Notes: generated by a model not told the origin, from the letters alone. Counted from the stretch's first letter, positions 2,967-61,771 are shown. The stretch is 64,000 nucleotides of DNA from Stegostoma tigrinum (GCF_030684315.1 NC_081373.1:24529989-24593988), one strand, 5' to 3'. Made by a program: numbers and translations.

Positions 2967-4263
2967 GATAACAAAGTGTGGAGCTGGATGAACACAGCAG
3001 GCCAAGCAGCATCTCAGGAGCACAAAAGCTGACGTTTCGGGCCTAGACCCTTCATCAGAGAGGGGGATGGGGACAGGGAACTGGAATAAATAGGGAGAGA
3101 GGGGGAGGCTGACCGAAGATAGAGAGAAAAGAAGATAGGTGGAGAGGAGAGTATAGGTGGGGGGTAGGGAGGGGATAGGTCAGTCCAGGGAAGACGGACA
3201 GGTCAAGGAGGTGGGATGAGGTTAATAGGTAGGAGATGGAGGTGCAGCTTGGGGTGGGAGGAGGGGATGGGTGAGAGGAAGAACAGGTTAGGGAGGTGGG
3301 GACAAGCTGGGCTGGTTTTGGGAGCAGTGGGGAGAGGGGAAGAGCTGGGCTGGTTGTGTGGTGCAGTGGGGGGAGGGGACGAGCTGGGCTGGTTTTGGTA
3401 TGCAGTGGGGGGAGGGGATGAGCTGGGCTGGTTGTGTGATGCAGTGGGGGGGAGGGGACGAGCTGGGTTGGTTTTGGGATGCAGTGGGGGAAGGCGAGAT
3501 TTTGAAGCTTGTGAAGTCCACATTGATGCCATTGGGCTGCAGGGTTCCCAAGCGGAATATGAGTTGCTGTTCCTGCAACCTTCAGGTGGCATCATTGTGG
3601 CACCGCAGGAGGCCCAGGATGGACATGTCGTCCAAGGAATGGGAGGGGGAGTTAAAATGATTCGCGACTGGGAGGTGCAGTTGTTTATTGCGAACTGAGC
3701 GGAGGTGTCCTGCAAAGCGGTCCCCAAGCCACCCTTGGTTTCCCCAATGTAGACTTCACCAGCTTCAAAATCTCCCCTTCCCCCACCGCATCCCAAAACC
3801 AGCCCAGTTCGTCCCCTCCCCCCACTGCACCGCACAACCAGCCCAGCTCTTCCCCTCCCCCCACTGCATCCCAAAACCAGTTCAACCTGTCTCTGCCTCC
3901 CTAACCTGTTCTTCCTGTCACCCATCCCTTCCTCCCACCCCAAGCCGCACCTCCATTTCCTACCTACTAACCTCATCCCACCTCCTTGACCTGTCCGTCT
4001 TCCCTGGACTGACCTATCCCCTCCCTACCTCCCACCTATACTCTCCTCTCCACCTATCTTTTTTTCTCTCCATCTTCGGTCAGCCTCCCCCTCTCTCCCT
4101 ATTTATTCCAGAACCCTCACCCCATCCCCCTCTCTGATGAAGGGTCTAGGCCTGAAACGTCAGCTTTTGTGCTCCTGAGATGCTGCTTGGCCTGCTGTGT
4201 ACATCTAGCTTTACACTTTATTATCTTGGATTCTCCAGCATCTGCAGTTCCTATTATCACTGA
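2967..4263. mobile_element. Two-armed (inverted) PLE insertion: left arm minus strand without tail, right arm plus strand with tail
   Basis: Left arm 2967-3753 and right arm 3745-4263 join at microhomology CAATGT(A/G)GA. Hammerhead motifs at 3031-3058 (-) and 4134-4161 (+). No TSD found. Confidence 0.92.
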
Positions 4264-8670: not shown

Positions 8671-9705
8671 CTTCCAGATTCAGCTCCAATTTTGAGAGTT
8701 TGATATCGTCTATTTTGGTCAAGTATCAACTTTCTCTCAAGCCAACAACTTCCTAACAACATCTTACTTTAGCACTGACCTGCCATGTCAGTTTGCAGCT
8801 TTACTTGTTAGCGCCCAACCTTTTCCAATGTCAACCGTCCTATTGTTTTTGATCTTCTCAGTTTTTGTCAATATTGTTAGTGGCAACATCTACTCAGACA
8901 TTATCCTTTTTCTATGCAGAACTATCGACATCTTCCTTCTCAACAGCTACAGTATTTCCTCCTACAACAGCCTAAACTGTGACTTCCTGGCTTTTGCCCA
9001 AGGTGCCTGCGTTCATTGTCCTCTCCCAGCTTCATGTTCTGTTCACCTACATCAACTTGCTGCCTTCAGGTAGTTTTTATTATTTTGCCTCTTTCAGGGC
9101 CATTATCCGTTGGGACAGAGTCAGCCACACAACAACCTGAAACTTCCTGCACAAGTTAGTCTCTTTAATCTACTCTACATGCTCAGACATGCAATTAACA
9201 TTAGAGTACCCTATACTTAAAGAAATCAAACATTCATTACTAAACATTTTTAAAGTACATTAATGACACCCATCTCTACAGCTCCAGCACTTTTCCTGAT
9301 AACTCTATAGTTATCACCATTCTGGTACAAAGTTAAATAGTAAAATAGTCAACAAGAGTTTACAATAAATAAGCAAGAGGACTAACTAAGGCATACGTTA
9401 TATCTCCTGTTAGGAGGTGCCCACCAACAATTCCATTCTCCTGCCTGAAAACCTGTTCAGGCTAAACCCAACTACAAGTCATTTTTACATTCTGCTCTAC
9501 CTAGGGTTGGTTTCAAACCTCAAATCCTACCCATTACCAAGACTAAATAGTTCTACCTCAATAACTCCAAATCCTTCCTCATCCACACAAAATCAATGAA
9601 GATACTGCTACTATGCTCTGTTCTGAAACAAGCCCTCTTCATACTTTATCTCCTGAAAAAATTGCAAAAGTCAATCGTGTAAACTAAATTCATAGCTATT
9701 AGAGA

Positions 9706-11000
9706 GAAAGCTGTTAGAGATAGGATTTATAATCATCTAGCAAGCAATAATTTGATTGGACACAGTCAACACGGATTTGTCAAGGGCAGATCATGTCTCA
9801 CAAACCCCATTGAGTTTTTTGAGAAGGTGACCAAGCATGTGGATGAGGGTAGGGCAGTTGATGTGGTGTACATGGACTTCAGAAAAGCTTTTGATCAGGT
9901 TCCACATGGTAGGCTATTGGAGAAAATACGGAGACATTGGACTGAGGGAGATTTAGCAGTTTGGATTAGAAACTGGCTTTCTGTAAGAAAGCAACGAGTG
10001 GTGGTTGATGGAAAATATTCAGACTGGAGTCCGGTTACTAGTGGTGTACCTCAAGGATCTGTTTTGGGACCACTGCTGTTTGTCATTTTTATAAATGACT
10101 TGGATGCAGGCATAGGTGGATGGGTTAATAAGTTTGCAGATGACACTAAAGTCGGTGGAGTGGTGGACAGTGTGGAAGAATGTTGCAGGCTGCAGGGACA
10201 CTTGGATAAACTGCAGAATTGGGCTAGAAGGTGGCAAGTGGAGTTCAATGCCGATAAATGTGAGGTGATTCACTTTGGGAAGAATAATAGGAAGTCAGAA
10301 TACCGGGTCAATGGAAAGATTCTTGGTAGTGTGGATGTGCAGAGGGATCTTGGTGTCCATGTACATAGATCCCTGAAAGTTGCCACCCAGGTTGATAGTG
10401 CTGTTAAGGCGGCTTACGGTGTGTTAGGTTTTATTGGTAGAGGGATTGAGTTCTGGAGCCGTGATGTCATGCGGCAACTGTACAAAACGCTAGTGCAGCC
10501 TCGTTTGGAATATTGCGTGCAGTTCTGGTCTCCCCATTATAGGAAGGATGTTGAAGCATTGGAAAAGGTGCAGTGGAGATTTACCAGGATGTTGCCTGGT
10601 CTGGAGCGAAGGCCTAATGAAGAAAGGCTGAGGGGCTTGGGTCTGTTCTCATTGGAGAGAAGGAGGCTAAGAGGGGATTTAATAGAGACAATCAAGATGA
10701 TCAGAGGATTAGATAGGGTGGACAGTGAGAGTCTTTTTCCGAGGATGATGACGTCAGCTTGTACAAGGGGGCATAGCTACAAATTGAGGGGTGATAGATT
10801 TAAGACAGATGTCAGAGTCAGGTTCTTTACTCAGAGAGTGGTAAGGGCATGGAATGCCCTGCCTGTCAATGTAGTGAACTTAGCCACATTAGGGGTATTT
10901 AAACAGTCCTTGGATAAGCATATGAATGATGATGGGATAATGTAGGGGGGCAACATCGAGGGCCTGTTCTGCGCTGTATTGTTCTATGTTCTATGTTCTA
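9706..11000 (+). mobile_element. 5'-truncated CR1 (HER1-like) LINE with uninterrupted RT/C-terminal reading frame
   Basis: Open ORF 9752-10945 with RT motifs. 3' tail is (GTTCTAT)n. Confidence 0.95.
9752..10945 (+). CDS. CR1 ORF2 fragment: reverse transcriptase + C-terminal domain (397 aa; truncated, not a host gene)
   Basis: Motifs QHGF, YMDFRKAFD, GVPQGSVLGP, KFADDTK, YCVQFWSP, FFTQRVVRAWNALP. Confidence 0.85.
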   Translation: MIGHSQHGFVKGRSCLTNPIEFFEKVTKHVDEGRAVDVVYMDFRKAFDQVPHGRLLEKIRRHWTEGDLAVWIRNWLSVRKQRVVVDGKYSDWSPVTSGVPQGSVLGPLLFVIFINDLDAGIGGWVNKFADDTKVGGVVDSVEECCRLQGHLDKLQNWARRWQVEFNADKCEVIHFGKNNRKSEYRVNGKILGSVDVQRDLGVHVHRSLKVATQVDSAVKAAYGVLGFIGRGIEFWSRDVMRQLYKTLVQPRLEYCVQFWSPHYRKDVEALEKVQWRFTRMLPGLERRPNEERLRGLGLFSLERRRLRGDLIETIKMIRGLDRVDSESLFPRMMTSACTRGHSYKLRGDRFKTDVRVRFFTQRVVRAWNALPVNVVNLATLGVFKQSLDKHMNDDGIM

Positions 11001-16815: not shown

Positions 16816-17418
16816 GATAATAAAGTGTGAAGCTGGATGAACACAGCAGGCCAAGCAGCATCTCAGGAGCACAAAAGCTGACGTTTCGGGCCTAGGCCCT
16901 TCATCGGAGAGGGGGGTGGGGAGAGGGTTCTGGAATAAATAGGGAGAGAGGGGGAGGCGGACCGAAGATGGAGAGAAAAGAAGATAGGTGGAGAGGAGAG
17001 TATAGGTGGGGAGGTAGGGAGGGGATAGGTCAGCCCAGGGAAGACGGACAGGTCAAGGAGGTGGGATGAGGTTAGTAGGTAGGAAATGGAGGTGCGGCTT
17101 GAGATGGGAGGAAGGGATGGGTGAGAGGAAGAACAGGTTAGGGAGGCAGAGACAGGCTGGGCTGGTTGTGTGATGTAGTGGGTGGAGGGGAAGAGCTGGG
17201 CTGGTTGTGTGATGCAGTGGGGGGAGGGGACGAACTGGGCTGGTTTTGGGATGCGGTGGGGGAAGGGGAGATTTTGAAACTGGTGAAGTCCACATTGATA
17301 CCATTGGGCTGCAGGGTTCCCAAGTGGAATATGAGTTGCTGTTCCTGCAACCTTCGGGTGGCATCATTGTGGCACTGCAGGAGGCCCAGGATGGACATGT
17401 CATCTAGAGAATGGGAGG
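16816..17418 (-). mobile_element. Single-arm PLE without tail
   Basis: GIY-YIG C-terminus and three 39-bp repeats. TSD TTCTAGAGTC(G/A)GTG at 16803-16816 and 17419-17432. Confidence 0.92.
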
Positions 17419-19827: not shown

Positions 19828-20766
19828 CATAGAGATATACAGCACAGAAACAGGCCCTCTGGTCCAACTCATCCATGCCAACCAGATATCCTACATAAAT
19901 CTAGTCCTATTTGCCATCATTTGGCCCCTATTCCTCTAAACCCTTCTTATTCATACACTCATTCAGATACCTTTTAAATGTTGTAATTGTGCCAACCTCC
20001 ACTACTTCCTCAAGCAGCTCATCCCATAATTTTCTTCTGAAGAAGGGTCTAGGCTCGAAAACATCAGCTTTCCTGCTCCTCTGATGCTACTTGGCCTGCT
20101 GTGTTTTTTCAGCTCTACACCTTGTTATCTCAGATTCTCCAGCATCTGCAGGTCCTACTATCTCATTCCATATACCACTCTGGCTGAAAATGTTGCCCCT
20201 TAGGGCCCCTTTAAATCTTTCCCCTCTCATCTTAAACCTATGCCCTCTACTTCTGGACTCCCTCAACCTGGGGGAAAAAACTATTTACCTTATTTATGCC
20301 CCTCATGATTTTATAAATGTCTATAAGATTACCCCTTAGCCTCCGATATTCTAGGGAAAATAACCCCAGTCTCCCTATATCAAAAATCTTCCAACCCTGG
20401 CAATATCCTTGTAAATCTTTTCTGAACTCTATCAAGTTTCCCAGCATCTTTCCTATAGCAGGGTGACCAGAACTGCACACAGTGTTCTAATAATGGCTTA
20501 ACCAATGTTCTGTACAGCCACAACATGGGCTCCTAACTCCCGTACACAAAGCACTGACCAATAAAGGCAAGCGTAGCAAACACCTTCTTCGCTATCTTAT
20601 CTATCTGTAATTCCATTTTCAAGGGACTATGAACCTGCACTCCAAGTTCTCTTTGTTCAACAACATTCCCCAGGACATTGCCATTAAGTGTATAGGCCCT
20701 GCCCTGATTTGCCTTTCCAAAATGTAGCACCTCACATTTATCTAAACTAACCTCCATCTGACACTC
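19828..20766 (-). mobile_element. CR1 LINE 3' part, interrupted by two PLE insertions
   Basis: Minus-strand DKCEVLHFGKANQGR, LGVQVHSPLK and LGLFSLEYRRLRGNLI. Continues briefly after 22082. Confidence 0.85.
20030..20162 (+). mobile_element. Mini-PLE with tail nested in CR1
   Basis: TSD CTCAT(C/T)CCATA at 20018-20028 and 20162-20172. Confidence 0.82.
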
Positions 20767-20831
20767 AGATAATAAAATGTGAGGCTGGATGAACACAGCA
20801 GGCCAAGCAGCATCTCAGGAGCACAAAAGCT

Positions 20832-20859
20832 GACGTTTCGGGCCTAGACCCTTCATCAG
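20832..20859 (-). ncRNA. Minimal type I hammerhead ribozyme motif (PLE-associated)
   Basis: Reverse complement reads CTGATGA-A-GGGT-CTAG-GCCC-GAAACGTC. Confidence 0.7.
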
Positions 20860-21943
20860 AGAGGGGGATGGGGGGAGGGAACTGGAATAAATAGGGAGAG
20901 AGGGGGAGGCGGACCGAAGATGGAGAGCAAAGAAGATAGGTGGAGAGGGTGTAGGTGGGGAGGTAGGGAGGGGATAGGTCAGTCCAGGGAAGACGGACAG
21001 GTCAAGGAGGTGGGATGAGGTTAGTAGGTAGCTGGGGGTGCGGCTGGGGGTGGGAGGAAGGGATGGGTGAGAGGAAGAACCGGTTAGGGAGGCAGAGACA
21101 GGTTGGACTGGTTTTGGGATGCAGTGGGTGGGGGGGAAGAGCTGGGCTGGTTGTGTGGTGCAGTGGGGGGAGGGGATGAACTGGGCTGGTTTAGGGATGC
21201 AGTGGGGGAAGGGGAGATTTTGAAACTGGTGAAGTCCACATTGATACCATTGGGCTGCAGGGTTCCCAGGCGGAATATGAGTTGCTGTTCCTGCAACCTT
21301 CGGGTGGCATCATTGTGGCAGTGCAGGAGGCCCATGATGGACATGTCATCAAGAGAATGGGAGGGGGAGTGGAAATGGTTTGCGACTGGGAGGTGCAGTT
21401 GTTTGTTGCGAACTGAGCGGAGGTGTTCTGCAAAGCGGTCCCCAATTCTCTTGATGACATGTCCATCATGGGCCTCCTGCACTGCCACAATGATGCCACC
21501 CGAAGGTTGCAGGAACAGCAACTCATATTCCGCCTGGGAACCCTGCAGCCATATGGTATCAATGTGGACTTCACCAGTTTCAAAATCTCCCCTTCCCCCA
21601 CTGCATCCCTAAACCAGCCCAGTTCATCCCCTCCCCCCACTGCACCACACAACCAGCCCAGCTCTTCCCCCCCACCCACTGCATCCCAAAACCAGTCCAA
21701 CCTGTCTCTGCCTCCCTAACCGGTTCTTCCTCTCACCCATCCCTTCCTCCCACCCCCAGCCGCACCCCCAGCTACCTACTAACCTCATCCCACCTCCTTG
21801 ACCTGTCCGTCTTCCCTGGACTGACCTATCCCCTCCCTACCTCCCCACCTACACCCTCTCCACCTATCTTCTTTGCTCTCCATCTTCGGTCCGCCTCCCC
21901 CTCTCTCCCTATTTATTCCAGTTCCCTCCCCCCATCCCCCTCT

Positions 21944-21971
21944 CTGATGAAGGGTCTAGGCCCGAAACGTC
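21944..21971 (+). ncRNA. Minimal type I hammerhead ribozyme motif (PLE-associated)
   Basis: CTGATGA core, stem II GGGT/GCCC, GAAA, GTC cleavage triplet. Stem III is reduced to the palindrome ACGT, and stem I is only about 2 bp. Confidence 0.7.
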
Positions 21972-22213
21972 AGCTTTTGTGCTCCTGAGATGCTGCTTGG
22001 CCTGCTGTGTTCATCCAGCCTCACATTTTATTATCTTGGAATCTCCAGCATCTGCAGTTCCCATTATCTCCATCTGACACTCCATGGCTCTTATTTGATG
22101 AAGTAAAAGTAAAAGATCTGGGCGTACAGGTCCAGAGATCCCTGAATGTGGCAACTCAGTTGGACAGGAAGGCATACAGCACCCTTGCCTTCGTTGGTCA
22201 TAAAAGTTGGCAG

Positions 22214-22440
22214 GATAATAAAATGTGAGGCTGGATGAACACAGCAGGCCAAGCAGCATCTCAGGAGCACAAAAGCTGACGTTTCGGGCCTAGACCCTTC
22301 ATCAGACTCTCTGATGAAGGGTCTAGGCCCGAAACGTCAGCTTTTGTGCTCCTGAGATGCTGCTTAGCCTGCTGTGTTCATCCAGCCTCACATTTTATTA
22401 TCTTGGAATTCTCCAGCATCTGCAGTTCCCATTATCTCTG
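22214..22440. mobile_element. 227-bp MITE-like two-armed mini-PLE with back-to-back hammerhead motifs
   Basis: Palindromic about 22308. Hammerheads at 22278-22305 (-) and 22311-22338 (+). Tail on the right. Perfect 14-bp TSD ATAAAAGTTGGCAG at 22200-22213 and 22441-22454. Confidence 0.95.
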
Positions 22441-22707
22441 ATAAAAGTTGGCAGATTGTGTTCCAGCTGTACAAAACCTTAGCTTGGTCATATTTGGAAT
22501 ATTGCACGCAGTTTTGTTGCCACACTACCAGAAGGACGTGGATGCATTGGTGAGGATGTAAAGAAGGTTTACCAACATGTTGCCAGGTCTAGAGGGTTTT
22601 AATTACGAGGAGAAGTTGGATAAACTCGGATTGTTTCCACTAGCAAGACAGAAGTTGAGGGGCTGAGGTTGATAGAGATCAATAAAACTATCAGACGCAT
22701 AGATAGG

Positions 22708-22797
22708 ATGACAAAGTGTGAAGCTGGAAGAACACAACAGGCCAAGCAGCATCTCAGGAGCACAAAAGCTGACGTTTCGGTCCTAGACCCGTCATCA
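22708..22797 (-). mobile_element. Single-arm mini-PLE without tail
   Basis: TSD CATAGATAGGATG at 22698-22710 and 22796-22808. Confidence 0.88.
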
Positions 22798-24019
22798 TAG
22801 ATAGGATGGATAGTCAGTGACCTTTTTCCCAGGGTGGAAAGATCAATTACAAGATAGCACAGGTTCAAGGTGAGAGGGGGAATATTTAGGAGAGAGGTGT
22901 GGGGAAACTTTATCACAGAGACGGTGATGGGCGCCTGGAAGGCACTGCCAGTGGAAGTGGTGGAAGCAGGCATGTTTGCAACATTTAAAATGTATCTTGA
23001 TAAATACATGAACATGAAGTGAGCAGAGGGATAGATACTGTGCATGGGCAATAAGTGGCATGTCTATATAACAACTAGGAATCGGCTCGGTGATCCAAAG
23101 GGCCTGGTCCTGAGCTGTACTGTATCGTATAGAAGTCCTAATGAAGACAGTTACATGATCACATTTCTCTCTGCCCTCACCAAAATGACATGTTTGCTGC
23201 TGCCTACCATATTGCATGCACTGGTGTCCATTTTATGGATGTTAACATTAACCAATTTCTAGGCCAACATAGTCAAACTTTGTTCTGTTTACTTACTTTC
23301 ATTTGTATGCATGGTCATGACTGCTTTCATTTGTAAAACAAATGTGTGAACCACAGAGTTTTGCTTTGACAATAATCTCATGAATATCACCCACTGTCTT
23401 ATTCAATTTGCCTTTGTTTGAAAGTCCACATTCACCCCACCCACACATAAATTAATACTAATATTACTTAGCCAAGTTTCAACCATCCTGACTGCATTAT
23501 AATGCAGCAATGGGCCAAGTGAGAAGGAAATAATGGAAATCTGCCGTTTGCCTTAACTCTTTGCTAACTGCAGTAACTTGCCCTTTAGAATGGCAAAAAC
23601 CTTATACTTCTCCTATTTTTTAAATTAAAAGTCAGGAATGAAACACAACCTCCTCCTCAATATATAAGAGTCACTGAAATCATTGGACTGGACTTTGCAA
23701 TAAGCCGTAAAACAAGTTTTCTCACTGTTCTCCTGAAAGAAAACCACAATGTGAGACCCAACAGTGCCTCTGGCAAGAGCTTTACCTCCTTCCACCACCC
23801 AATGAACTGCAATGTCTTTTCATGAAGATTCCCAGAGCAGTGATGGTATCAATCTTTCCAAGTAGCCAATGCCATTGACAAATTCTAACGGACAGTCGAC
23901 CAGCAAGTGAAAAGACACTAAAATTAAACCATTTTAAAGAAATTACCTTGAGCCAGATAATGATTGGGACATACAGATGAATGAATGCTTTAAAAAAATT
24001 ATTGAAAACTTTTCATGTT

Positions 24020-25700
24020 TGTGGCTCAGGAGGGAGGCCATTTAGCCCATCAAATACCTGCTAGTGCTTCACAGAGTAATCCAGTCAGTCACAGTCGTCT
24101 GCTCAATCCATGTACCTTTCAAATTTGTCCATTACAAGGGTTCATCCAAATACATTTTAAACTCATGATAACGAACTGTGGAGCTGGATGAACACAGCAG
24201 GCCAAGCAACATTTTAGGAGCACAAAAGCTGATGTTTCGGGCCTAGTCCCTTCATCAGAAAATCATCATCTTTTCTGATGAAGGGCCTAGGCCCGAAACG
24301 TCGGCTTTTGTGCTCCTAAGATGCTGCTTGCCCTGCTGTGTTCATCCTGCTCCACACTTTGTTACCTTGGATTCTCAAGCATCTGCAGTTCTCATTACCT
24401 CTGATCACATTTTAAACTCATTATTGTTTTTGCTTCCGCCACCCTCACAGACAGAGAGTTCCAGGTCATTACCACTCATTTTGTAATAAAGTTCTTCCTT
24501 ACATTCCTTTTGCCATGCTAGCCCACAAACAAGGCTCCTGAATTCTTGCATCACCAGCTAATTTGCCTGGTCTAAACTTGTCATAATCTTGAACAAATCA
24601 ATAAATCCCACCTCAATGTCTTATGCTCCAAGGAGAGAAATCATTTCCAACCTAACATCGTGGCTACAAATCCTCATCCCTGGAACCTTCACTTACACAG
24701 CGGGAGTAGGTAATTCATCCCTTCAAGACCACTCAGCCATCGTGGCTGATCTTATCCTGATCTCAAACCCATTCTCCTGCCTGCTCCCCACAGCCCTTTA
24801 TCCCTCTTTTAATCAGAAATGTATCTATTTCTTTTTTTAATCCACCACACTACCAGAAGGACGTGGATGCTTTGGCGAGAGCCCCTCTGAGAGAAATAAC
24901 TTCTCATCTCCGTTATGAACCTCCTTCCTCTCACTCTATATCTACGGCTGCTTGTTTGAGACTGTTCCACAAGGGGGAGCATCTGTTCCATGCACACTTT
25001 ATCAATCCGTGTAGGAATTTCATATACCTCAATCAGATCCCCCCCCCAACCCCACCCCCACCCCCCCACCACCATTCATCTGAACTCCAGCGAGTACAAG
25101 CCCAAGCTATTCAACCACCCCTTGTATGGCAGCTCTTTCATCCCTGGAATCAATTTGATCTATCTCCTCCAGTGCTACCCCATCCCTCCTCAAGTAAGGA
25201 AACCGAAACTGGACGCAATGCTCCATGTGTGGTCTCACCAATGACTTAAATAATTGTAATGACAAATTCTGTAACTTTTTTTCTGAATCCTCTCAAGGGT
25301 TTTCCTAAAGAGTGATGACCAGGACTAGACACAATCCTCCACTTAGGGCCTCACCAGTTCTTCATAAATGCTCAGCATAATGTCTACTTTTGTACACAGT
25401 GCCCATATGATTTGTTAACCACAGTTTAATATGTTCTGCAAACTTGGTTAATGTTCATGCATCCTCAGGTACCACTGCTTGTGCAAGCCCTCTGTAATTC
25501 TCCCATTACTGGCACAGGAAGCATAACATAGCTTTTCCCTAACCCTTTTACCAAAGCACATCACCTCATATCTGTAGGTTCGATTTCACCTTCCAGTTGT
25601 CTGCCCTTTCTGTTTATCCATCCTATTGCAGGCAATTTGTACCATCCTCATTGCCTGACGCTTTTCCCAAGTTTGGTACCATAAGTGAAATGTGAAACTC
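24020..25700 (-). mobile_element. Cluster of degenerate CR1 3' fragments
   Basis: GDLIEVYEI...RGRRFITEMRSYFSQRG on the minus strand. Several nested pieces. Confidence 0.7.
24167..24406. mobile_element. Two-armed mini-PLE
   Basis: Inverted arms around spacer tcatcatc, tail on the right. 15-bp TSD ACATTTTAAACTCAT at 24152-24166 and 24407-24421. Confidence 0.92.
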
Positions 25701-27479: not shown

Positions 27480-29148
27480 GTACCCAGGAATGTGGGCTTG
27501 AGTTTAGAGTAGTGTAACAGTTGGATTACACCAAAGGTAGGTGAGGACCTGGAAACAATCATTATTACGGTAGTATTGGGCAAGTTAACGGAGCTAAGGA
27601 TTGATAAGTCTCCTGGGCCTGATGGAATGCATCCCAGGGTAGTAAAAGAGAATGTGGGAGAAATCGCAGGTGCACTGGTGGCAATTTTCCAAAATTCACT
27701 GGATTCTGGGACAGTCTCAGGAGATTGGAAAACAGCAAATGTGACACCACTGTTTAAAAAGGGAGGTAGACAAAAGATGGGGAATTATAGACCGGTTAGC
27801 TTAACCTCTGTAGTGGGGAAGTTACTTGAATCCATTATCAAGGAAGAAATAGGAAGGCATCTCAATAGAAATTGTACCGTTGGGCAGATACAGCATGGGT
27901 TCATGAAGGGCAGGTCATTCTTGACAAATCTTTTGGAATTCTATGAAGACATTACGAGCAAGGTGGACAATGGGGACCCAGTGGATGTGGTGTACCTATA
28001 TTTCCAAAAGGCCTTCAACAAGGTGCTGCATAAGAGGCTGCTGCATAAGATAAGGATGCATGGCTTTAGGGGTAAAGTATTAGCATGGTTAGAGGATTGG
28101 TTGACTAACAGGAAGCAAAGAGTGGGGATAAATGAGAGCTATTCTGGCTGGCAATCAGTGACTAGTGGTGTGCCTCAGTGTTGGGACCGCAATTATTTCA
28201 AATTTATAAAGATGATTTGGAGTTGGGAACCACGTGTAGGGTGTGAAAGTTTGAAGATGACACTAAGTTGAGTGGCAGAGCGAAGTGTGCAGAGGACTGT
28301 AAAACTTTGCAGAGGAACATAGATACATTGAGTGAGTGGGCAAAGGTCTGTCAGATGGAATACAATGTAAATAAATGTGAAGAGTAATAGTAAAAGGGAT
28401 AATTACTTGAATGGTAAAAAGTTACAAAATGCTGCTATGCAGAGGGACCTGGGTGTCCTTGTGCAGGAAAAGTAATTAGGAAAGCAAATGAAATTTTGTC
28501 CTTCATTGCTAAAGCGATTGAGTTTAAAAGCAGAGAGGTCATGTTGCAGCTGTACAAGGTGCTGGTGAGGCCACACCTGGAGCACCATGTGCAGTTTTGG
28601 TCTCCTTACTTGAGAAAGGATGTACTGGCACTGCATGGGGTCCAGAGGAAGTTCACTAGGTTGATTCTGGAGTTGAGCGGGTTGGTTTATGAGGAGAGAC
28701 TGAGTAGATTGGGATTATATTCATTGGAATTCAGAAGATTGAGGGGGGATCTTATAGAAACATATAAAATTATGAAAGAAATAGATAAGATAGAAGTAGA
28801 CAGGATGTTTCCATTGGCAGGTGAAGCTAGAACAAGAGGGCTGAGCCTCAAGATTAGAGGGAGCAGATCTAGGACTGAATTGAGAAGGAACTTCTTCACT
28901 CAGAGGGTTGTTAATCTATGGAATTCCTTGCCCAGTGAAGTAGTTGACACTACTTCAGTAAACATTTTTAAAGCTAGGGTAGAGGTTTTTTTGAACAATA
29001 AAGGAACAAAGGGATACAGTGAGAATGCAGATAAGTGGATCTGAGTCCACAAAAAGATCAGTCATGATCTTAATGAATGGCAGGGCAGACTCAAAGAGTC
29101 GGACGGCCTACTCCTGCTCCTAGTTCTTATGTTCTTAAGTTCTTATGT
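27480..29148 (+). mobile_element. 5'-truncated CR1 LINE, RT region with frameshifts
   Basis: ORFs 27576-28271 (KSPGPDGMHPRV, NYRPVSLTS, QHGF) and 28496-29044. 3' tail (TTCTTAT/AG)n. Confidence 0.93.
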
Positions 29149-30334: not shown

Positions 30335-31655
30335 GGAGATAATACTGTATGGAGGTGGAGGACCACAGCGGGTCAGGCAGCATCAGAGGAGCAGGAAAGA
30401 TGACTTTTCAGGGCTGGACCCTTCTTCACAAATGGGGAGGGGGAATGGAGCTGGGAAATAAGTAGAGAGAGGAGGGGTGGGACTGGGGAAGGTAGGTGAG
30501 ATGGTGATAGGTGAGACACAGGTAGGGAGTGGTGAGGATTGGTCAGTGGGATGGGTTGTGCGGATAGGTGGGAGAGAAGATGGACAGGTTGTGTCAGATC
30601 AAGGAGCTGGGGATGAGAGGGAGGGTTGGACACGGGATGAGGGGTGGGGAGATTTTAAAACTCACGAATTCCATGTTAAGGCCATCGGGCTGTAGGCTCC
30701 CGAGGCGGAATATGAGGTGCTGCTCCTCTGGCTTGCGGATGGTGTCATTGTGATGATGGAGGAGGCCCAGGATGGACATGTCAACCAGGGAGTGGGAGGG
30801 GGAGTTAAAAATGTTGGCGACCAGAGGTGTTGTCGTTTTTTGCAAACAGAGCACAGATCTCCACAAAGCCGTCTCCCGAGTCTACGCTTGGTCTCACCGA
30901 TGTAGAGGAGGGCATATTGGCAGCAGCAGATACAGTAGACCAGGATGGAGGATGTGCAGGTGAACCCATGTTTGATATGAAAGGTTTGCTTTGGGCATTG
31001 AATGGAAGAGAGGGGGAGGTGTAGGGGCAGGTGTAACTTCCTGTGGTTGCAGGGAAAGCTGCCGGGTGTGATGGGGTCAGTGGGGAAGATTGGAGGATGA
31101 GGCAGTCACGGAGTCAGTGGTCCCTAGGAAAGGCAGATAGTGGTGGGGAGGGAAAAATCTCTTTGGTTGTGGAGTTGGATTGTAGCTTGCGGAAGTGGCA
31201 GAGAATGATACATCGGATGCGGAAGTTGGTGGGGTGATATGTGAGGATAAGGGGGATTCTGTCCTTATTTTTGTTGGGAGGAGGACAAATGAGGGCAGAA
31301 GTGCAGGAAACGCAAGAGGTGTGGAGGGCATTTTCGATTACTGGAGGGAGGAAATTATGGTCCTTGAAATCAGAGGACATCTGGAATGTGAGGGAGTGGA
31401 ATGCTCCATCTTGGGGGCAGATGCAGTGGAGGCAGAGGAATTGGGAGTAGAGGATCGTATTCTTGCAGGAAGGTGGGTGCAAGGAGGTGTAGTCTAGGTA
31501 GCTGTGGGAGTCGGTGGGCTTGAAATTGATGTCAGTTTTGAGGTGGTCACCAGAGATTGGGACAGACAAGTCCAGGAAGGGGAGGTCCAGGTGAATGTGA
31601 GTTTGGGGTAAACATTGTTAATAAAGTTGATGACCTGTTCAAGCTGCTTGTGGGG
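30335..31655 (-). mobile_element. Older, longer PLE fragment (RT thumb + linker + GIY-YIG, decayed)
   Basis: KPTDSHSYLDYTSLHPPSCKNTILYSQFL (PLE RT C-terminus), RIPLILTYHP, EEQHLIFRLGSLQPDGLN. Confidence 0.88.
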
Positions 31656-34283: not shown

Positions 34284-36202
34284 TAATGGGAACTGCAGAT
34301 GCTGGAGATTCCAAGATAATAAAATGTGAGGCTGGATGAACACAGCAGGCCAAGCAGCATCTCAGGAGCACAAAAGCTGACGTTTCGGGCCTAGACCCTT
34401 CATCAGAGAGGGGGATGGGGGGAGGGAACTGGAATAAATAGGGAGAGAGGAGGAGGCGGACCGAAGATGGAGAGTAAAGAAGATAGGTGGAGAGGGTGTA
34501 GGTGGGGAGGTAGGGAGGGGATAGGTCAGTCCAGGGAAGACGGACAGGTCAAGGAGGTGGGATGAGGTTAGTAGGTAGCTGGGGGTGCGGCTTGGGGTGG
34601 GAGGAAGGGATGGGTGAGAGGAAGAACAGGTGAGGGAGGCAGAGACAGGTTGGACTGGTTTTGGGATGCATTGGGTGGGGGGGAAGAGCTGGGCTGGTTG
34701 TGTGGTGCAGTGGGGGGAGGGGATGAACTGGGCTGGTTGAGGGATGCAGTGGGGGAAGGGGAGATTTTGAAACTGGTGAAGTCCACATTGATACCATATG
34801 GCTGCAGGGTTCCCAGGCGGAATATGAGTTGCTGTTCCTGCAACCTTCGGGTGGCATCATTGTGGCAGTGCAGGAGGCCCATGATGGACATGTCATCAAG
34901 AGAATGGGAGGGGGAGTGGAAATGGTTTGCGACTGGGAGGTGCAGTTGTTTGTTGCGAACTGAGCGGAGGTGTTCTGCAAAGCGGTCCCCAAGCATCCGC
35001 TTGGTTTCCCCAATGTAGAGGAAGCCGCACCGGGTACAGTGGATGCAGTATACCACATTGGCAGATGTGCAGGTGAACCTCTGCTTAATGTGGAATGTCA
35101 TCTTGGGGCCTGGGATGGGGGTGAGGGAGGAGGTGTGGGGACAAGTGTAGCATTTCCTGCGGTTGCAGGGGAAGGTGCCGGGTGTGGTGGGGTTGGAGGG
35201 CAGTGTGGAGCGAACAAGGGAGTCACGGAGAGAGTGGTCTCTCCGGAAAGCAGACAGGGGAGGGGATGGAAAAATGTCTTGGGTGGTGGGGTCGGATTGT
35301 AAATGGCGGAAGTGTCGGAGGATAATGCGTTGTATCCGGAGGTTGGTAGGGTGGTGTGTGAGAACGAGGGGGATCCTCTTGGGGCGGTTGTGGCGGGGGC
35401 GGGGTGTGAGGGATGTGTCGCGGGAAATGCGGGAGACGCGGTCAAGGGCGTTCTCAATCACCGGGTACTGCATCCACTGTACCCGGTGCGGCTTCCTCTA
35501 CATTGGGGAAACCAAGCGGAGGCTTGGGGACCGCTTTGCAGAACACCTCCGCTCAGTTCGCAACAAACAACTGCACCTCCCAGTCGCAAACCATTTCCAC
35601 TCCCCCTCCCATTCTCTTGATGACATGTCCATCATGGGCCTCCTGCACTGCCACAATGATGCCACCCGAAGGTTGCAGGAACAGCAACTCATATTCCGCC
35701 TGGGAACCCTGCAGCCATATGGTATCAATGTGGACTTCACCAGTTTCAAAATCTCCCCTTCCCCCACTGCATCCCTAAACCAGCCCAGTTCATCCCCTCC
35801 CCCCACTGCACCACACAACCAGCCCAGCTCTTCCCCCCCACCCACTGCATCCCAAAACCAGTCCAACCTGTCTCTGCCTCCCTAACCGGTTCTTCCTCTC
35901 ACCCATCCCTTCCTCCCACCCCAAGCCGCACCCCCAGCTACCTACTAACCTCATCCCACCTCCTTGACCTGTCCGTCTTCCCTGGACTGACCTATCCCCT
36001 CCCTACCTCCCCACCTACACCCTCTCCACCTATCTTCTTTACTCTCCATCTTCGGTCCGCCTCCCCCTCTCTCCCTATTTATTCCAGTTCCCTCCCCCCA
36101 TCCCCCTCTCTGATGAAGGGTCTAGGCCCGAAACGTCAGCTTTTGTGCTCCTGAGATGCTGCTTGGCCTGCTGTGTTCATCCAGCCTCACATTTTATTAT
36201 CC
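34284..36202. mobile_element. Largest two-armed PLE insertion (left arm tailed ~1.18 kb, right arm untailed ~0.74 kb)
   Basis: 14-bp TSD TGGAAACCAAGAGG at 34270-34283 and 36203-36216. Hammerheads at 34379-34406 (-) and 36110-36137 (+). Junction near 35460. Confidence 0.95.
34568..35462 (-). pseudogene. PLE polyprotein C-terminal fragment: Cys-rich linker + GIY-YIG endonuclease (Neptune-type)
   Basis: CNRRKCYTC Zn-finger linker, NVVYCIHCTRCGFLYIGETKR (GIY-YIG), DRFAEH, QEQ, GINV. Open frame but 5'-truncated. Confidence 0.9.
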
Positions 36203-36276: not shown

Positions 36277-36396
36277 GATAATAAAGTGTGAAGCTAGATG
36301 AACACAGCAGGCCAAGCAACATCTCCTGCTGTGTTCATCCAGCTTCACACTTTATTATCTGGGATTCTCTGGCATCTGCAGTTCCCATTGTCACTC
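36277..36396. mobile_element. 120-bp two-armed micro-PLE, both arms truncated before the hammerhead
   Basis: 17-bp TSD ATCAACCAACATTGTAA at 36260-36276 and 36397-36413. Tail on the right. Confidence 0.9.
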
Positions 36397-37159: not shown

Positions 37160-37322
37160 GAACAGAAATCGCTGGAAAGGCTCAGCAGGTCTTGCAGCAT
37201 CCGTGGAGATAAAGCAGAGTTAGTGTTTCAGATCAAGTGACCCTTCCTCAGTTCTGAGCTTTTCCAGCAACTTCTGATTTTGTTTCTAATTTACAGCTTC
37301 TGCAGTTCTTTTGGGTATTTTC
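37160..37322. mobile_element. Two-armed mini-element of the older, second hammerhead-bearing family
   Basis: Inverted arms, right arm extended about 35 nt. TSD CCAT(C/T)AGCAAATTA at 37146-37159 and 37323-37336. Confidence 0.75.
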
Positions 37323-37366
37323 CCATTAGCAAATTAATTTGTTTGCCAGCCATCCTTTACATTTTT

Positions 37367-37680
37367 GACAATAAAATGTGAGGCTGGATGAACACAGCAG
37401 GCCCAGCAGCATCTCAGGAGCACAAAAGCTGACGTTTCAGGCCTAGACCCTTCATCAGAGAGGGGGATGGGGTGAGGGTTCTGGAATAAATAGGGAGAGA
37501 GGGGGAGGCAGACCGAAGAAGGAGAGAAAAGAAGTACAAGAGAGTTGCAGTGGGAGAGAGATTCCCTGAGGTTGGTCCGGAGGGAGGAGGGTAACTTCTT
37601 CAGGTTAGGCATCCCTGGAAGATGCTTCGCAGTGAGGTTAAAATTGTATCAGTGATAATGGGAACTGCAGATGCTGGAGA
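37367..37680 (-). mobile_element. Permuted, internally deleted PLE: tail, 5' leader and probable ORF start fused to 3' UTR
   Basis: TSD ACATTTTTGA at 37359-37368 and 37680-37689. Unique segment 37535-37650 follows the tail and contains ATG (MPNLKKLPSSLRTNLRESLSHCNS). Confidence 0.8.
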
Positions 37681-41707: not shown

Positions 41708-41862
41708 AGAGATAATGGGAACTGCAGATGCTGGAGAAATTCCAAGATAATAAAATGTGAGGCTGGATGAACACAGCAGGCCAAGCAGCATCTCAAGAGC
41801 ACAAAAGCTCCTGAGATGCTGCTTGGCCTGCTGTGTTCATCCAGCCTCACATTTTATTATCT
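41708..41862. mobile_element. Two-armed micro-PLE, tail on the left
   Basis: 15-bp TSD TGTATTATTTGAATG at 41693-41707 and 41863-41877. Arms join at GCT microhomology. Confidence 0.92.
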
Positions 41863-44329: not shown

Positions 44330-44542
44330 ATAACAAAGTGTGAAGCTGGATGAACACAGGCCAAGCAGCATCTTAGGAGCACAAAAGCTGACATTTCAGG
44401 CCTAGACCCTTCATCAGAAAAGGGTCTAGGCCCAAAACGTCACCTTTTGTGCTCCTAAGATGTTGCTTGGTCTGCTGTGTTCATCCAGCTTCACACTTTG
44501 TTATCTCGGATTCTCCAGCATCTGCAGTTCCCATTATCCCAG
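44330..44542. mobile_element. Two-armed mini-PLE, tail on the right
   Basis: Imperfect TSD ATCT(A/T)GTTATAA at 44322-44333 and 44543-44554. Confidence 0.88.
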
Positions 44543-49734: not shown

Positions 49735-50450
49735 ATAGAGTGCAAGAGCAGAGAGGACATGTTGAACTTGTACAAGACACTTGTTAGACCTCAGCTAGAG
49801 TATTGTGTGCAATTGTGGGTGCCATATCATAGGAAGGATGTGAGGGTTGGAAAGAGTGCAGAAAAAGTTTACAAGAATGGTTCCATGCATGAGGAAAAGG
49901 AGATCTGATAAAGGATATCAAAGTCATGAGTGGGCTCAATAGAGATAGACAGGGAGAATCAGTGAACAAGAACAAGAGGGCACAGGCTTAAAGTGATTTG
50001 CAAAAGAAGCAAAAGTGACGTGACATAAAGAGACAGTAAGAACTACCAGCGCTGGAGTCAGAGATAACACAGCGTGGAGCTACAGGAACACAGGAGGCCA
50101 GGCAGATCAGGGTCCTGATCCGAAATGACAGCTTTCCTGCTCCTCTGATGCTGCCTGGCCTGCTATGTTCCTCCAGCTCCACACTGTGTTATCTGAAGTG
50201 ACATGAAACTTTTCCACTCAGCGTATAATTAGGCTTGGGTGTTTTCACTGCCTCAAAATGTCATGGAGGTAGGTTCAATTGAGGCATTCAAGCAGGTATT
50301 AGATGATTATTTGGATAAAACAATGTGTAAAGATACGGCGGTGGGGGGAGGGAGTGGAATCATGAGATTGGCACTAGGTAATGCTGCTCATTTAATGAGT
50401 CAGAACAGTACAATGGGTCAAATGGCCTCCATCTGCATCATAACACTCTG
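49735..50450 (+). mobile_element. Degenerate CR1 3' part, interrupted by a mini-PLE
   Basis: LYKTLVRPQLEYCVQLWVP motif. Confidence 0.78.
50029..50194. mobile_element. Older two-armed mini-PLE, tail on the left
   Basis: Inverted arms. Imperfect TSD AAGTGAC(G/A)TGA. Confidence 0.75.
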
Positions 50451-50589: not shown

Positions 50590-50670
50590 AGGCCCGAAAC
50601 GTCAGCTTTTGTGCTCCTGAGATGCTGCTTGGCCTGCTGTGTTCATCCAGCTTCACACTTTATTATCTTG
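50590..50670 (+). mobile_element. Single-arm micro-PLE
   Basis: TSD GATAGACCC at 50581-50589 and 50671-50679. Confidence 0.88.
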
Positions 50671-51932
50671 GATAGACCCTGGTTAGTGTTTTTTTTAATG
50701 TGTGTCTCCAAAGTTCCTTTTTTTTTTGAAAAAGAAATTTGCTTAACTTCCTCGATCGTGCCATGTTGTTGTTTTATTTTAAGTTTGCAGTTGGGTTTTT
50801 TTAGACTAGCCTAGATCATCTTCATATATTGCATTGATTACCTTTTTACATAGCTTCTGTCACCACATACGTGCAACTGCCCAGCTGTGAAAAAGAAATA
50901 TAAACAGACATTTGCTGATCATGTGTTATGTTTAATTAAAGTACAGAGATTCACATTCTTAATTGCAACACACTACAAAATGCCAATAAATGACCAAACC
51001 AAGTGTCAAAAACCAAGACACTTGCAGGGCCAAGGCATGTACTTCTAACTTGGCACTTAAAACATTAAGGGCTTCAATCAGGTGAATCAAATGAAGTTCT
51101 TTCGATGGTGGGCTACACTTGGAAGACAAAGCTATAACCTTATAAATCAGAGCTACAGCATTTCAGAGTGAAAGTAGGAAGCTCTTACTCACAGAGCATT
51201 TTGGAAATCTGGAACTTGCAAAAAGACTGAGCATGCTGGCACAACTGTAATTTTCAACGACTGTGTATGTTTTACGGAATTATAAAGTTTCTTCTTCATT
51301 CTGCAGACAGTTTACTGAAGCTTCTTTGACAAGAAACTGTGAACCAGTGTCAGATTGCCTTCAATCACCACCAGCTGTCTACAAGAAACAACAATTTATT
51401 CAAGGACCCTCGTAGCCCTTCTGTCTGTTTTCCCTCTGGCTATCAAGCAGGAAGAGAATTCCAAACCGTTCTCCCTCAGGCTTCTATCACTGAAGATAAG
51501 GTGCACATCATGAGCTAGATCTTTTCTCCCTAAATTCTGCATCCAATTCCTTTTGCAGCATTCTAGAAACTACAGACTTTAGGGAAGGACCTCTCATTTT
51601 TAGCAGCATGCAATACAAACAACACCATTTTAATTCCTTGACTTTTCACACTATCAGAGTTTCAAATCTGCTTGTGGTTGAGAAAACAAAAGCACTGTCT
51701 AAAAAATACTTGTGTGTGGAACTCATGTTGTAAGCCTCTCACACTGGTCAGTGCCAGAGGGTTTTCCATAACTGTGACAGGTACCAGCTATGAATTTTAT
51801 CAAAAACATTATAAAAACAATGTAAGAAGCACTGGCAGGGATATATCTATTGTGGCCATTGTTCAAATGGACACTTCTGGTTTGAATTGTCATTCAGTGA
51901 CTGTGTCATACAAAAACCTACAACCTCTACTG

Positions 51933-52213: not shown

Positions 52214-52365
52214 GATAACAAGGTGTAGAGCTGGATGAACATAGCAGGCCAAGCAGCACCAGAGGAGCAGGAAAGTTGACATTTCGGGCCTAGATCCTTC
52301 TGTTCATACAGCTCTACATCTTCTTATCCCAGATTCTCCAGCATCTGCAGTTCCTACTATCTCTG
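52214..52365. mobile_element. Two-armed mini-PLE, tail on the right
   Basis: 12-bp TSD TGACTCCATGGA at 52204-52215 and 52364-52375. Confidence 0.88.
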
Positions 52366-56454: not shown

Positions 56455-59400
56455 CATTTGAGATGGTAGTTAGGACAGCAGTATGCTCCTCGTGCTGGAT
56501 GTGAGTACTTAGGGAGACTTCCATTGTCTCTGGTAACTACAGCTGTTGGAAGTGCACCCAGCTGCAGCTCCTGGGAGACTGTGTCAGGGAGCTGGAGTTG
56601 GATGCACTCAGGATCATCCGAAATACTGAGCGCAACAAAGATAAGAGTTTTAGCGAGGTGGTCACACCTAAGGTGCAGGCAGAGAGTAGCTGGGTAAACA
56701 CCAGGAAAGGCAAAGGGAGTAGGCAGAAAATGCAGGAATTCCCTGGTGGCCATTCTCCTTGAAAACAAATTTTCCATTTTGGATACTGTTGGGAGGAATG
56801 ACTTCAGGGTGAAGCATCAATAGCCTGGTCAGTGCCACTGTGACAGGCTCTGGAGCACTGTGGGAAAGGGTAAGGGTAAACAGGACGGTAGTGATAGGAG
56901 ACTAGATAGTTAGGGGGACAGACAGGAGACTCTAGCTGCACAGGAATCCAGGTTGGTGTGTTGCTTCCCAGGTGTTAGGGTCCAGGATGTCATGGAGCAG
57001 TGCAGAATGTTCTCAAGGAGGAGGGTGAGCAGCCAGAAGTGATTGTGCATGCTGGTATGAATGACAAGTCAGAAATAGGGATGAGGTCCTGTGGAGTGAT
57101 CATAGAGAGCTAGGAAAAAAGTTAAAAACCAGGACCTTGACAGTGGTAATTTCGAGATTACTTCCAGTGCCACATGCTAGTGAGGGTAAGAACAGGAGAG
57201 TATACAGCAGATGAATGCGTGGCTAAAGATTTGGTGCAGAGCGCAGGATCCTGGATCATTAGGATCTTTTCTGGGGCAGAGGTGATCTATTCAAGGGGGA
57301 TGAGGTGTACCTGAACTGGAGGGGACCAATATCCTGGCAGGCAGATTTGGTCTTGCTGCAAGGGGGGGTTTAAACTAAATTGGCAGGGAATGGGATCCTC
57401 AACAGCAGAGAAGCATGAGTCTGGAAGGAGACACAATAATCAAATATAGCAAGTTGAAGAAACGGGTCAGGCTGGAACAGGACAGGGAGCGAGGAATGCC
57501 TGTTGGATTAAATTGCATCTATTTCAATGCACAAGGGCTGACCAGTAAGGCCGATGAACTCAGGATGTGGATAGGTATGTGGGGCTGGGATGTTATAGCC
57601 ATTACAGACACATGGCTGAAGGAGGGACAGGACCGGCAGCTTAATGTGGGACACTGGTGAAAGAAAGAGGGGAGGGGGAGGTGAGTTTTTGATTAAGGGG
57701 AGTATCACAGCAGTAATCAGAGATAAAAGAACTGAGAGATCATCCAGTGAACCTGCGTGGGTGGAGCTAAGAAATGAAAAGGGGATGGAGATATTATTGG
57801 GGTTGTATTTTAGGCCCCGAAATGGTCAATGGGAATTAGAGGAACAAATATGCAGAGAGTCTGGAGACTTGCATGAGCAATAGGATTGTCATAGTGGGAC
57901 ATTTTAATTTTCCTAACAGACTGGGACTAGGATCGTGTTAAGGGCTTAGATGGTGTGGAATTTGTTAAATGTGTTCCAGAAAGTTTCCGGAAAGGATCCT
58001 ATTTGGGAAGGGCAAAATACGACTTACTGTTGGGAAATAGGGCAGGACAGGTGAACTGAACTGAGGTGACAGTGGGGGAGCACTTTTGCACCAGTGGCCA
58101 TAGTTCTATTAATTTTAGAATAGTTATCGAGAAGGACAAAACTGGTCCACAGGTTCAAATTCTAAATTGGGGCACGACAAATTTTGGTGATATTAGTCAA
58201 GAGCTTGAAGGGGTTGATTGGAGTAGTTTATTTGTTGGCATAGGGACCTCTGGCAAGTGGGGAGGGCTTCAAAAGTATGATAGCTAGAGTTCAAGGGCAA
58301 GGTTGGCCTGGAGTAGGGAGCACTGGATGACAAGAGATATTGAGGCTTTGACCAGAAAAAAGGAAGAGGTATGGCTCATGTAAGGTCAAGGGAATCCCCA
58401 GAGGTATATAGGGGATACAGGAGTTTACTGAAGAAGGAAATCAGAAGGATGAAAAAGGGGGGCACATGATAGATTTGGCTGAGAAGATTAGGGTGAATCC
58501 AAAGGGATCCTTTAAGTATATTAAAGAAAAAAGAATAACTAGAGGGGGATTAGGACCCGTCAGGGACCAAAGTGGACAATTATGTGTGGAACCGCAGGAG
58601 ATGGGTGAGGTCCTCAATGAAGATTTTTCCTTTGTGCTTACCGTGGAGAAAGACATGAAGGCTTGGAATCTTGCGGAAATTAGTGGTGTTATTTTGGGAA
58701 CAGTCGTTATCACAGCGGAGGTGGTGTTGGTAGTATTAGAATGCATGAAGGTGGATAAATCCCCTGGTCCTGACCAGATATGTCCAAGGACTCTGCAAGA
58801 GGCTAGAGAAGAAATTGCAGGGGCCTCAGCTGATATATTTGCATCATCTTTAGACATAGTGAGGTCTCAGAAGATTGGAAATTAGCGAATGTTGTGCGCT
58901 TATTCAAGGAGGGCTTCCAAGGAAAAACCCTTGAAGTACAGACCAGTAAGCCTAATACCTGTGGTAGTTGAGTTACTTGAGCAGATTCTGAGGGATACGA
59001 TATACATGCGTTTAGAATGACAGGGTTTGAATTGGAGTAGTCAGCATGGCTTCATGCGTGGGAGGTCAGACCTCACAAATTTCTTAGAGCTCCTTGATAA
59101 AGTGACCAGGAAGGTTGACGAGGGCAGGGTGATCGACATAGTTTAAATAGATTTCAGTAAGGCCTTTGATAAGGATCCACATGGAAGGCTGCTCTGGAAA
59201 GTCAGATTGCATGGAATCGGGGAAAGCTGACAAATTGGATACATAATTGGCTTGATGGTAGGAAGCAGAGGGTAATATTGGAAGGATGCTTGTCGGACTG
59301 GAGGCTAATGTTGTGCCTCAGGGGTCGGTGGTGGGCCCATTCCTGTTTGTTATCTATATCAATGATTTGGATGAGAATGTACAAGGCATGATTAGTAAGT

Positions 59401-61564: not shown

Positions 61565-61771
61565 AAATAGCAAGAACTGCAGATGCTGGAGTCAGAGATA
61601 ACACAGTGTGGAGCTGGAGGAACACAGCAGGCCAGGCAGCATGAGAGGAGCAGTAGAGTTAATGTTTCACGTCAGGACCCTTCTTCAGAAGTTCAAAACG
61701 TCAGCTTTCTTGTTCCTCTGATACTGCCTGGCCTGCTGTTCCTCCAGCTCCGTACTGTGTTATCTCTGTAT
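61565..61771. mobile_element. Older two-armed mini-PLE, tail on the left
   Basis: TSD TCACCAATG at 61556-61564 and 61772-61780. Confidence 0.8.

Follow-up and report, generated by a model that had tools for sequence, protein, structure and literature searches.

Two-armed PLE insertions carry a single tail, consistent with priming by both ends of a staggered target cut at two internal RNA regions

Our analysis of a 64,000-nucleotide stretch of Stegostoma tigrinum DNA (the window), placed on contig C24 of a 3.2-Gb genome, revealed that two-armed insertions of a Penelope-like element (PLE), made of two 5'-truncated copies joined head-to-head, nearly always extend into a short tail on one arm only. 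Positions bearing a + or - sign are counted from site 1, where the first TTATTATC-type motif ends; the second ATTATC, lying 33-34 nt farther on, is site 2. The tail between them is internal element sequence, and tandem copies continue from it into the 5' UTR and the ATG, which lies ~75 nt past site 1. An earlier note on this DNA had reported 12 such insertions in the window with exactly one tail each, and all 12 were borne out. The one-tail feature is thus real and robust, and it belongs to a known element class. Very probably both target ends prime reverse transcription with one start site each, whether on one RNA or on two.

PLEs are the sister group of telomerase RTs, and the window, whose DNA is vertebrate-like, contains many copies of one PLE family group together with LINE RT fragments. 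In a natural partial tandem copy (L218), a 1101-aa ORF remains open and encodes DKG, RT motifs, a CX4CxxC linker and a GIY-YIG core that contains an internal CxxC. This single ORF, which includes VVYCIHCTRCGFLYIGET, has the EN+ PLE layout of an RT followed by a C-terminal GIY-YIG. A Pfam search of the ORF matched RVT_1 at E = 2.8e-5, weaker than the curated cut-off for that family, and did not match the GIY-YIG domain; no RNase H domain was detected in the ORF. The CCHH motif is present, with two cysteines between GIY and YIG (CxxC 946-949, in the core) and histidines at residues 968 and 984, as is a CX2-5CxxC linker upstream of GIY-YIG (CNRRKCYTC, residues 903-911). Comparisons with the literature draw on the accessible portions of PMC11167929, PMC3846280, PMC8557442, PMC2377424, PMC7229834, PMC2837659 and bioRxiv 10.64898/2026.07.22.740005. 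The accessible text of PMC8557442 makes the CCHH motif, including its two cysteines between GIY and YIG, a criterion for EN+ PLEs and gives the CX2-5CxxC linker to Neptune and Nematis, not to Penelope/Poseidon; by these definitions the predicted protein is that of an EN+ PLE with a Neptune/Nematis-type linker. The copies also have pLTRs from partial tandems, an inverted 5'-truncated copy, a 30-40 nt tail and a variable target-site duplication (TSD), all of which are PLE traits.

A plain-motif count gave at least 88,004 young element ends genome-wide, 52,661 of which run on into the tail, and the motif just past the tail (i.e., continuation into the body) occurs 2,981 times. The resulting genome-wide tail share of 60% is an unclean test of the one-tail rule, because no-tail arms often lose the last motif bases. 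The family is also present in organisms B and C (runs X8, X10), where contigs have loose ends at the site-2 window.

The focal insertion occupies 20752..22082. It begins with a 15-bp TSD copy found by the TSD script (20752..20766), followed by a left arm on the minus strand (20767..21445; 678 nt) that is 99.1% identical to L218 and ends at site 1 with no tail. The right arm lies on the plus strand (21445..22035; 591 nt to site 1) and is joined head-to-head to the left arm, the two sharing 1 nt. Past site 1 it continues as the 33-nt tail between sites 1 and 2 (22036..22068, plus strand), and the right TSD copy follows at 22068..22082, its first 3 nt also fitting the continuation of the element (microhomology). 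Two rare variants are common to both arms, and the arms mismatch at -485/-484.

The remaining window insertions have the same organization. The tail is on the right in 2967..4263, 22214..22443 (arms 93/96 nt, 14-bp TSD), 24167..24406 (an older subfamily, 15-bp TSD), 36277..36396 (arms 49/35 nt, 17-bp TSD), 37160..37323 (an old sister family, 13-bp TSD with 1 mismatch), 44330..44540 and 52214..52363 (sister family, 10-bp TSD). It is on the left in 34284..36201 (arms 1149/736 nt, 14-bp TSD), 41708..41861 (15-bp TSD, the tail arm stopping at a predicted hammerhead cut), 50029..50193 (sister family, 11-bp TSD with 1 mismatch) and 61565..61771 (sister family, 9-bp TSD). As the earlier note had held, 11 of the 12 insertions have a TSD: eight are exact by script and span 9-17 bp (20767, 22214, 24167, 34284, 36277, 41708, 52214 and 61565), three are imperfect and were read by eye (37160, 44330 and 50029), and none was found for 2967. 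The tail arm of 34284 retains the 3' part of the ORF on the minus strand (34568..35497), comprising the CX4CxxC linker and GIY-YIG endonuclease, at 99% identity to residues 805-1101 of the L218 ORF.

The samples in which the rule was assessed came for the most part from the initial 5 Mb of contig C1, with further stretches taken from other contigs. In all, 1,564,000 bases holding 555 ends were analysed: the window, random sequence (300 kb), regions around ends chosen without regard to the tail (500 kb), regions around tailed ends (490 kb), an apparent exception (10 kb) and a set selected for long pairs (200 kb). A TSD score of at least 9 was reached by 128 pairings, compared with 2/288 unrelated end pairings; removal of one duplicate and one match to the tail itself left 126 TSD pairs. 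Exactly one tail was present in 126/126 (57 left, 69 right), 56 of them from tail-blind sets. When TSDs were ignored, 1,674,000 bases yielded 147 head-to-head junctions. Both outer ends fell at site 1 or 2 in 136 of these, with one of each in 133/136, and the other 11 had an internal end or a chaining error. The overwhelming one-tail class that had been predicted was therefore found in both sets of pairs. Tail-blind joined pairs were one-tailed in 59/61 cases (p = 8e-16 against a 50% expectation), which contradicts the occurrence of zero- and two-tail pairs at a chance rate. Among new loci picked only by their central junction, 18/19 had one tail (20 taken, one a duplicate).

The stronger statement that there are never zero or two tails held within the window and failed outside it, where we found two 0-tail cases (C10 stretch 93566 and L184 7034) and two 2-tail cases (L149 4903 and L243). 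These four may be later rearrangements, because all lack a TSD. Adjacent opposite ends up to 4.5 kb apart without a TSD comprised 36 one-tail, 9 two-tail and 7 no-tail cases; on inspection, most of the zero- and two-tail neighbours were unrelated, were inner tandem ends or had internally deleted tails.

Palindromes can be mis-assembled or homogenised, and the two-armed structures could in principle be assembly artefacts, two independent insertions or products of later recombination between copies. The four exceptions and window insertion 2967, all without a TSD, may be rearrangements of this kind. As an account of the structures at large, however, this is highly improbable: 126 pairs each lie within one TSD in unique flanks, against the 2/288 null, which contradicts separate TSDs for the two arms. 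The arms also differ in length, tail and private substitutions (L094 has 38 differences in 1213 nt). To a lesser degree, short-read contigs from other runs, which have loose ends in that same site-2 window as well as joints between opposite strands, argue against an artefact. The single insertion event put forward in the earlier note, with a staggered cut of ~14 nt, both 3' ends as primers and joined cDNAs, is therefore supported.

TSD lengths were 13-16 bp in 108/126 pairs and peaked at 14-15 bp (77/126), which by standard TPRT geometry indicates 3' overhangs of ~14 nt. The flanks outside the two nicks are mirror-symmetric, with A at -3 in 72 and 71 of 126 pairs and A at -7 in 83 and 76 (background 0.30). 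The target is thus read in the same way from both sides, and the RNA, rather than the target, is the likely carrier of the asymmetry.

The two internal RNA start sites proposed earlier stood as two regions about 33-38 nt apart, not as fixed points; both are windows with short microhomology to the target. Among 63 clean pairs of young copies, the match of the tail arm to the element continues 1-17 nt beyond the second ATTATC, and the TSD of the no-tail arm begins between -6 and +6 of the first motif. Microhomology between the target and the RNA continuation ranged from 1 to 7 nt, and reached at least 2 nt at 30/63 tail ends (null 18%, p = 8e-8) and 32/63 no-tail ends (null 25%, p = 1e-5); extra bases took its place at 7 tail ends and 5 no-tail ends. 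Of the single-armed copies with a TSD taken from tail-blind sets, 15 ended at site 1, 10 at site 2 and 3 internally, showing that each site can start a cDNA. Folding of the RNA from -97 onward was no better than that of shuffled sequences (z = 0.68) and offered no structural reason for two sites.

Single-armed copies in the window that end at site 1 lie at 16816-17418, 22713-22801 and 50590-50672, with TSDs of 10, 13 and 9 bp. A single-orientation mini-unit at 37367-37680, in which body +7..+152 is fused to the last 168 nt, also stops at site 1 and has a 10-bp TSD. At two loci (L221 2611-3187 and L102 1420-1840) the outer end falls at +144 or +151 instead of site 2; these ends, near mini-unit breakpoints, mark a possible third start region. 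At three others (L087 5007-5590, L086 4890-5052 and L049 5004-7328) the second arm starts internally (-414, -50 and -43, respectively) within the TSD. The first of these (L087) has non-overlapping halves and no tail, resembling L1 twin priming.

Modelling of residues 1-175 as a homodimer gave a score in the low-to-middle range, while the best control scored nil. Two of three runs agreed closely at that level and the third scored nil, with contact agreement at least 0% and pLDDT at least 63. The score mark was met by 21/30 solved pairs and 0/23 single chains in a microbial calibration, and by 7/16 animal pairs. A homologue search with residues 1-175 found none, and the dimer was modelled without an alignment because N-terminal homologues were not found. 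The predicted contact is an antiparallel helix at residues 63-106, and parallels the head-to-tail helix dimer modelled for PAc in the accessible portion of PMC11167929. This model supports binding of the protein as a dimer through its N-terminal 175 aa.

Arm lengths were compared in 76 pairs (126 pairs, of which 111 aligned on both arms and 95 had simple junctions; 76 were left once the length-selected set was taken out). Lengths of the two arms correlate (Spearman 0.81), and both arms fall in the same class (up to 66, 67-100 or over 100 nt) in 69/76 pairs, compared with a permutation mean of 27.2 and a maximum of 44 in 20,000. Which arm is longer varies, as had been claimed: the no-tail arm in 34 pairs, the tail arm in 34 and neither in 8. 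The prediction of a leader-trailer arrangement, that the no-tail arm is systematically longer, was rejected by this 34:34 split.

These lengths also bear on a fold-back reaction, in which a site-2-primed cDNA snaps back, copies itself, is trimmed or cut at site 1 and joins the other target end; this merges the self-priming and endonuclease-resolution ideas in the accessible text of PMC3846280 and PMC8557442. Fold-back predicts one tail, a shared haplotype and shared breakpoints, correlated lengths and central microhomology, all of which were observed. However, it also predicts that the no-tail arm is never longer, and this arm was longer in 34/76 pairs and in 18/29 of those differing by more than 100 nt, including 100%-identical young copies. 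Nor does it account for the 15 single-armed TSD copies at site 1, a polymerase jump onto site 1 (L250) or a locus with mixed templates (L220), and site 1 is an RNA-templated start in vitro in another PLE (PMC11167929, accessible portion). We consider fold-back improbable.

The central joint was examined in 58 young simple junctions, of which 43 are direct and 15 carry inserts of 1-9 nt. The direct joins overlap by at least 2 nt in 22/43 cases (null 14.5%) and by at least 3 nt in 15/43 (null 4.4%). Such central overlaps resemble microhomology-mediated end joining. The arms overlap in 133/147 joined junctions rather than forming the non-overlapping inverted halves of the L1 type, which a few rare loci (e.g., L087) resemble. 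At one locus (L064 4966-6105) a 17-nt telomere-like (TAACCC) stretch lies at the central junction.

Whether both primers act on one RNA molecule was tested through variants as well as lengths. Across 106 pairs and 38 diagnostic columns, both arms had the minor allele in 203 instances and a single arm had it in 80; this sharing of 72% compares with 37% for age-matched re-pairing (maximum 46% in 200 rounds). Of 67 informative pairs, 34 were fully concordant and 24 had at least two discordant diagnostic sites, and some of the discordance involves whole subfamily haplotypes (L180 5460, L170 5044, L155 4888 and L097 2954). Private variants in 25 young long pairs were on both arms 10 times and on one arm 17 times. 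The same deletion breakpoint was present on both arms in 7 loci, among 29 chosen for a body motif. In one locus (L219), a 329-nt unit occurs five times on the tail arm and more often on the other, all within one 14-bp TSD. Mixed templates nevertheless occur: L220 has one arm from an undeleted template and the other from a deleted mini-unit, and L114 is also mixed. Most events thus act as if one template served both arms, while a minority do not.

We lean towards twin priming on what is likely one RNA, with one primer per site, strand displacement and end joining. The predicted protein dimer would cut the target with a ~14-nt stagger, and both 3' overhangs would prime reverse transcription, one at each internal start region, where a few bases immediately past the site would pair with the overhang. 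After copying the tail, the polymerase that started at site 2 would displace the cDNA begun at site 1, a step we propose because no RNase H domain was detected in the ORF. Neither cDNA would extend past the RNA 5' end, which would lie near -97 at the putative start, at -64 after the predicted hammerhead cleavage, or much farther away on tandem or circular RNA. Host microhomology-mediated repair would then join the two cDNA 3' ends, and each cDNA would template the second strand of the other. Loss of one cDNA would leave a single-armed copy, and template jumps would yield partial tandems and occasional mixed arms. The tail, TSD, flank, microhomology, single-armed, arm-length, length-class, allele, breakpoint and central-overlap counts, the dimer model and the in vitro results for PAc (PMC11167929: both strands cut and extended, two internal start sites, a predicted dimer) back such a reaction on one RNA, and contrary to it stand the 24/67 discordant pairs, the focal mismatch at -485/-484, L220, L114 and the four TSD-less exceptions. 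Also contrary to it, the accessible text of PMC11167929 reports for PAc no difference between strands in start-site use and calls the RNA and cut DNA non-homologous. Shared haplotypes and length classes would also fit two RNAs of one locus, arm-to-arm gene conversion or fold-back.

Dual priming on two RNAs is less probable but is a reading we would entertain. Here the two polymerases would hold separate RNAs, mostly derived from one source locus and processed alike (e.g., RNAs co-cleaved by a dimeric hammerhead), and an asymmetric or sequential complex would force one start at site 1 and the other at site 2. This would explain mixed-template loci (L220, L114) and the haplotype-discordant arms, and would make strand displacement unnecessary. 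Vertebrate retrozyme hammerheads are better as dimers, and dual priming has been postulated for L1 (accessible portions of PMC7229834 and PMC2837659, respectively). Two RNAs would, however, call for an additional asymmetry that the symmetric target flanks do not supply, and would have to accommodate the length class common to 69/76 pairs and the breakpoints shared in 7 mini-unit loci against 1-2 mixed ones. The discordance itself could reflect the frequent template jumps of this element (as at L250 and L184) or gene conversion at a later time.

The arms supplied 293 5' ends, of which 185 fall no more than 110 nt from site 1. A wall of ends stands at -98, with only 3 ends from -99 to -129, and ~28 nt upstream of this wall lies a TATA-like octamer (-125..-118; 21910..21917, plus strand, in the focal right arm), a putative promoter. 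Farther downstream, the pLTR contains a minimal motif with CUGAUGA, stem II and GAAAC-GUC (21944..21971, plus strand), which we take to be a type I hammerhead-like motif by the hammerhead consensus; the core letters are present and stem I has only 2 bp by eye. An Rfam scan gave no hammerhead match, only palindrome-driven sub-threshold ones. The predicted cut after 21971 would give a 64-nt arm. At this position we found 14 arm ends from 8 insertions, while the 10 positions immediately upstream together hold 1 end. Genome-wide there are 595 instances of the exact 64/64 palindrome, a join favoured by its own palindromic centre, while jumps from the cut position to site 1 or 2 (L250, L184) are independent of that centre. 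Two RNA 5' ends may thus exist, a start near -97 and a predicted ribozyme cut at -64, and long arms may derive from tandem or circular RNA. At L250 185-423 and L184 7034-7352, units open at the position of the predicted hammerhead cut and then resume at site 1 or 2, which suggests that the polymerase jumped on reaching the end of a cut RNA.

As a structure, such an insertion is ordinary for a PLE, and the gain is mechanistic rather than a new kind of element. An inverted arm with a tail 'often' at one end is in print (PMC3846280, PMC8557442, accessible text). Like Pen2a_Av (PMC3846280) and the unit in Fig. 2 of PMC8557442, the present element forms inverted 5'-truncated head-to-head copies in one TSD with a 30-40 nt tail and partial tandems. 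Unlike the EN+ PLE unit as described in those portions, one tail is near-obligatory within each event here and either arm can be longer. Our counts turn 'tail often at one end' into a constraint, namely that the start sites are used one each per event, and this constraint is directly testable in the existing in vitro system. They also contribute a 14-nt stagger that is symmetric, priming helped by microhomology, and two apparent 5' ends for the RNA. A search of open papers found no within-event one-site-each coupling, microhomology-guided starts or such counts; the tail was first described in PLE reviews of 2005-2006, outside that search.

A close parallel is PAc, a Poseidon PLE of Anolis, for which the accessible portion of PMC11167929 describes two internal start sites and cutting and extension of both strands in vitro, with a dimer by modelling. 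The likeness extends to start sites that bound the tail at the pLTR-ORF junction, to the cutting and extension of both strands and to a predicted head-to-tail dimer through an N-terminal helix. The present element differs in its extra CX2-5CxxC linker and in having its sites in the 5' UTR. Priming by PAc is called non-homologous and uncut RNA is dominant, whereas we found microhomology of 1-7 nt and an accumulation of 5' ends where the hammerhead is predicted to cut. The accessible text of that paper has no within-event coupling of sites and no model for inverted inserts; a term search of its text supplements gave no match, and supplementary figures S1-S2, which lay outside that search, may be relevant to microhomology and to the tail counts. 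In L1, twin priming and the dual priming postulated for it (PMC2837659, accessible portion) likewise have both target 3' ends as primers, inverted halves in one TSD and a microhomology joint. There, twin priming is a minority variant with an internal second primer and non-overlapping halves, whereas here it is the main route, the arms copy the same stretch, and both starts are internal without poly(A).

The origin of PLE inverted structures and of the second strand is called unresolved in the accessible text of PMC8557442 and PMC11167929. We see an even chance that PLE integration is an obligate twin-primed reaction, in which a dimer on one RNA would engage one target 3' end per site, with strand displacement and with the cDNAs as mutual second-strand templates. 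If so, this would be a retroelement integration route without an element-made second strand; the tail, inverted pLTR, single-armed copies and retrozyme-like arrays would all follow from one mechanism, and the templates would be capped, hammerhead-cut, circular or tandem forms of the RNA.

Tandem arrays of deleted non-coding mini-units lie in single TSDs with one tail (L219 2634-5050, L220 1702-4020, L222-L225, L107, L109 and L115). Examples of these retrozyme-like units span -178..+151 (329 nt) and -222..+139 (362 nt). Many mini-units keep sequence to about +139..+194, a stretch that is possibly a protein-binding region. Deleted 330-360 nt units, a putative type I hammerhead motif and tandem arrays (L219, L220) liken them to non-LTR retrozymes (PMC7229834 and bioRxiv 10.64898/2026.07.22.740005, accessible portions). 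Unlike those elements as described there, the arrays here lie inside PLE-type two-armed, one-tail, TSD-bounded inserts and are thus tied to PLE integration. In the sister family, arms at L163 7139-7945 and L097 9519-9641 are tandem arrays of a ~50-nt unit just upstream of site 1, the former enclosed by a 12-bp TSD.

The window also holds an old diverged PLE relative (30337-31617) with ~70% DNA identity at its end and remnants of thumb and endonuclease. Fragments of another LINE RT lie at 9683-10945, 27513-29044 and 58412-58885 and are presumably CR1/L2-like from their look; the first matches Pfam RVT_1 at E = 2e-28. Several of the PLE insertions in the window are nested in LINE remnants.
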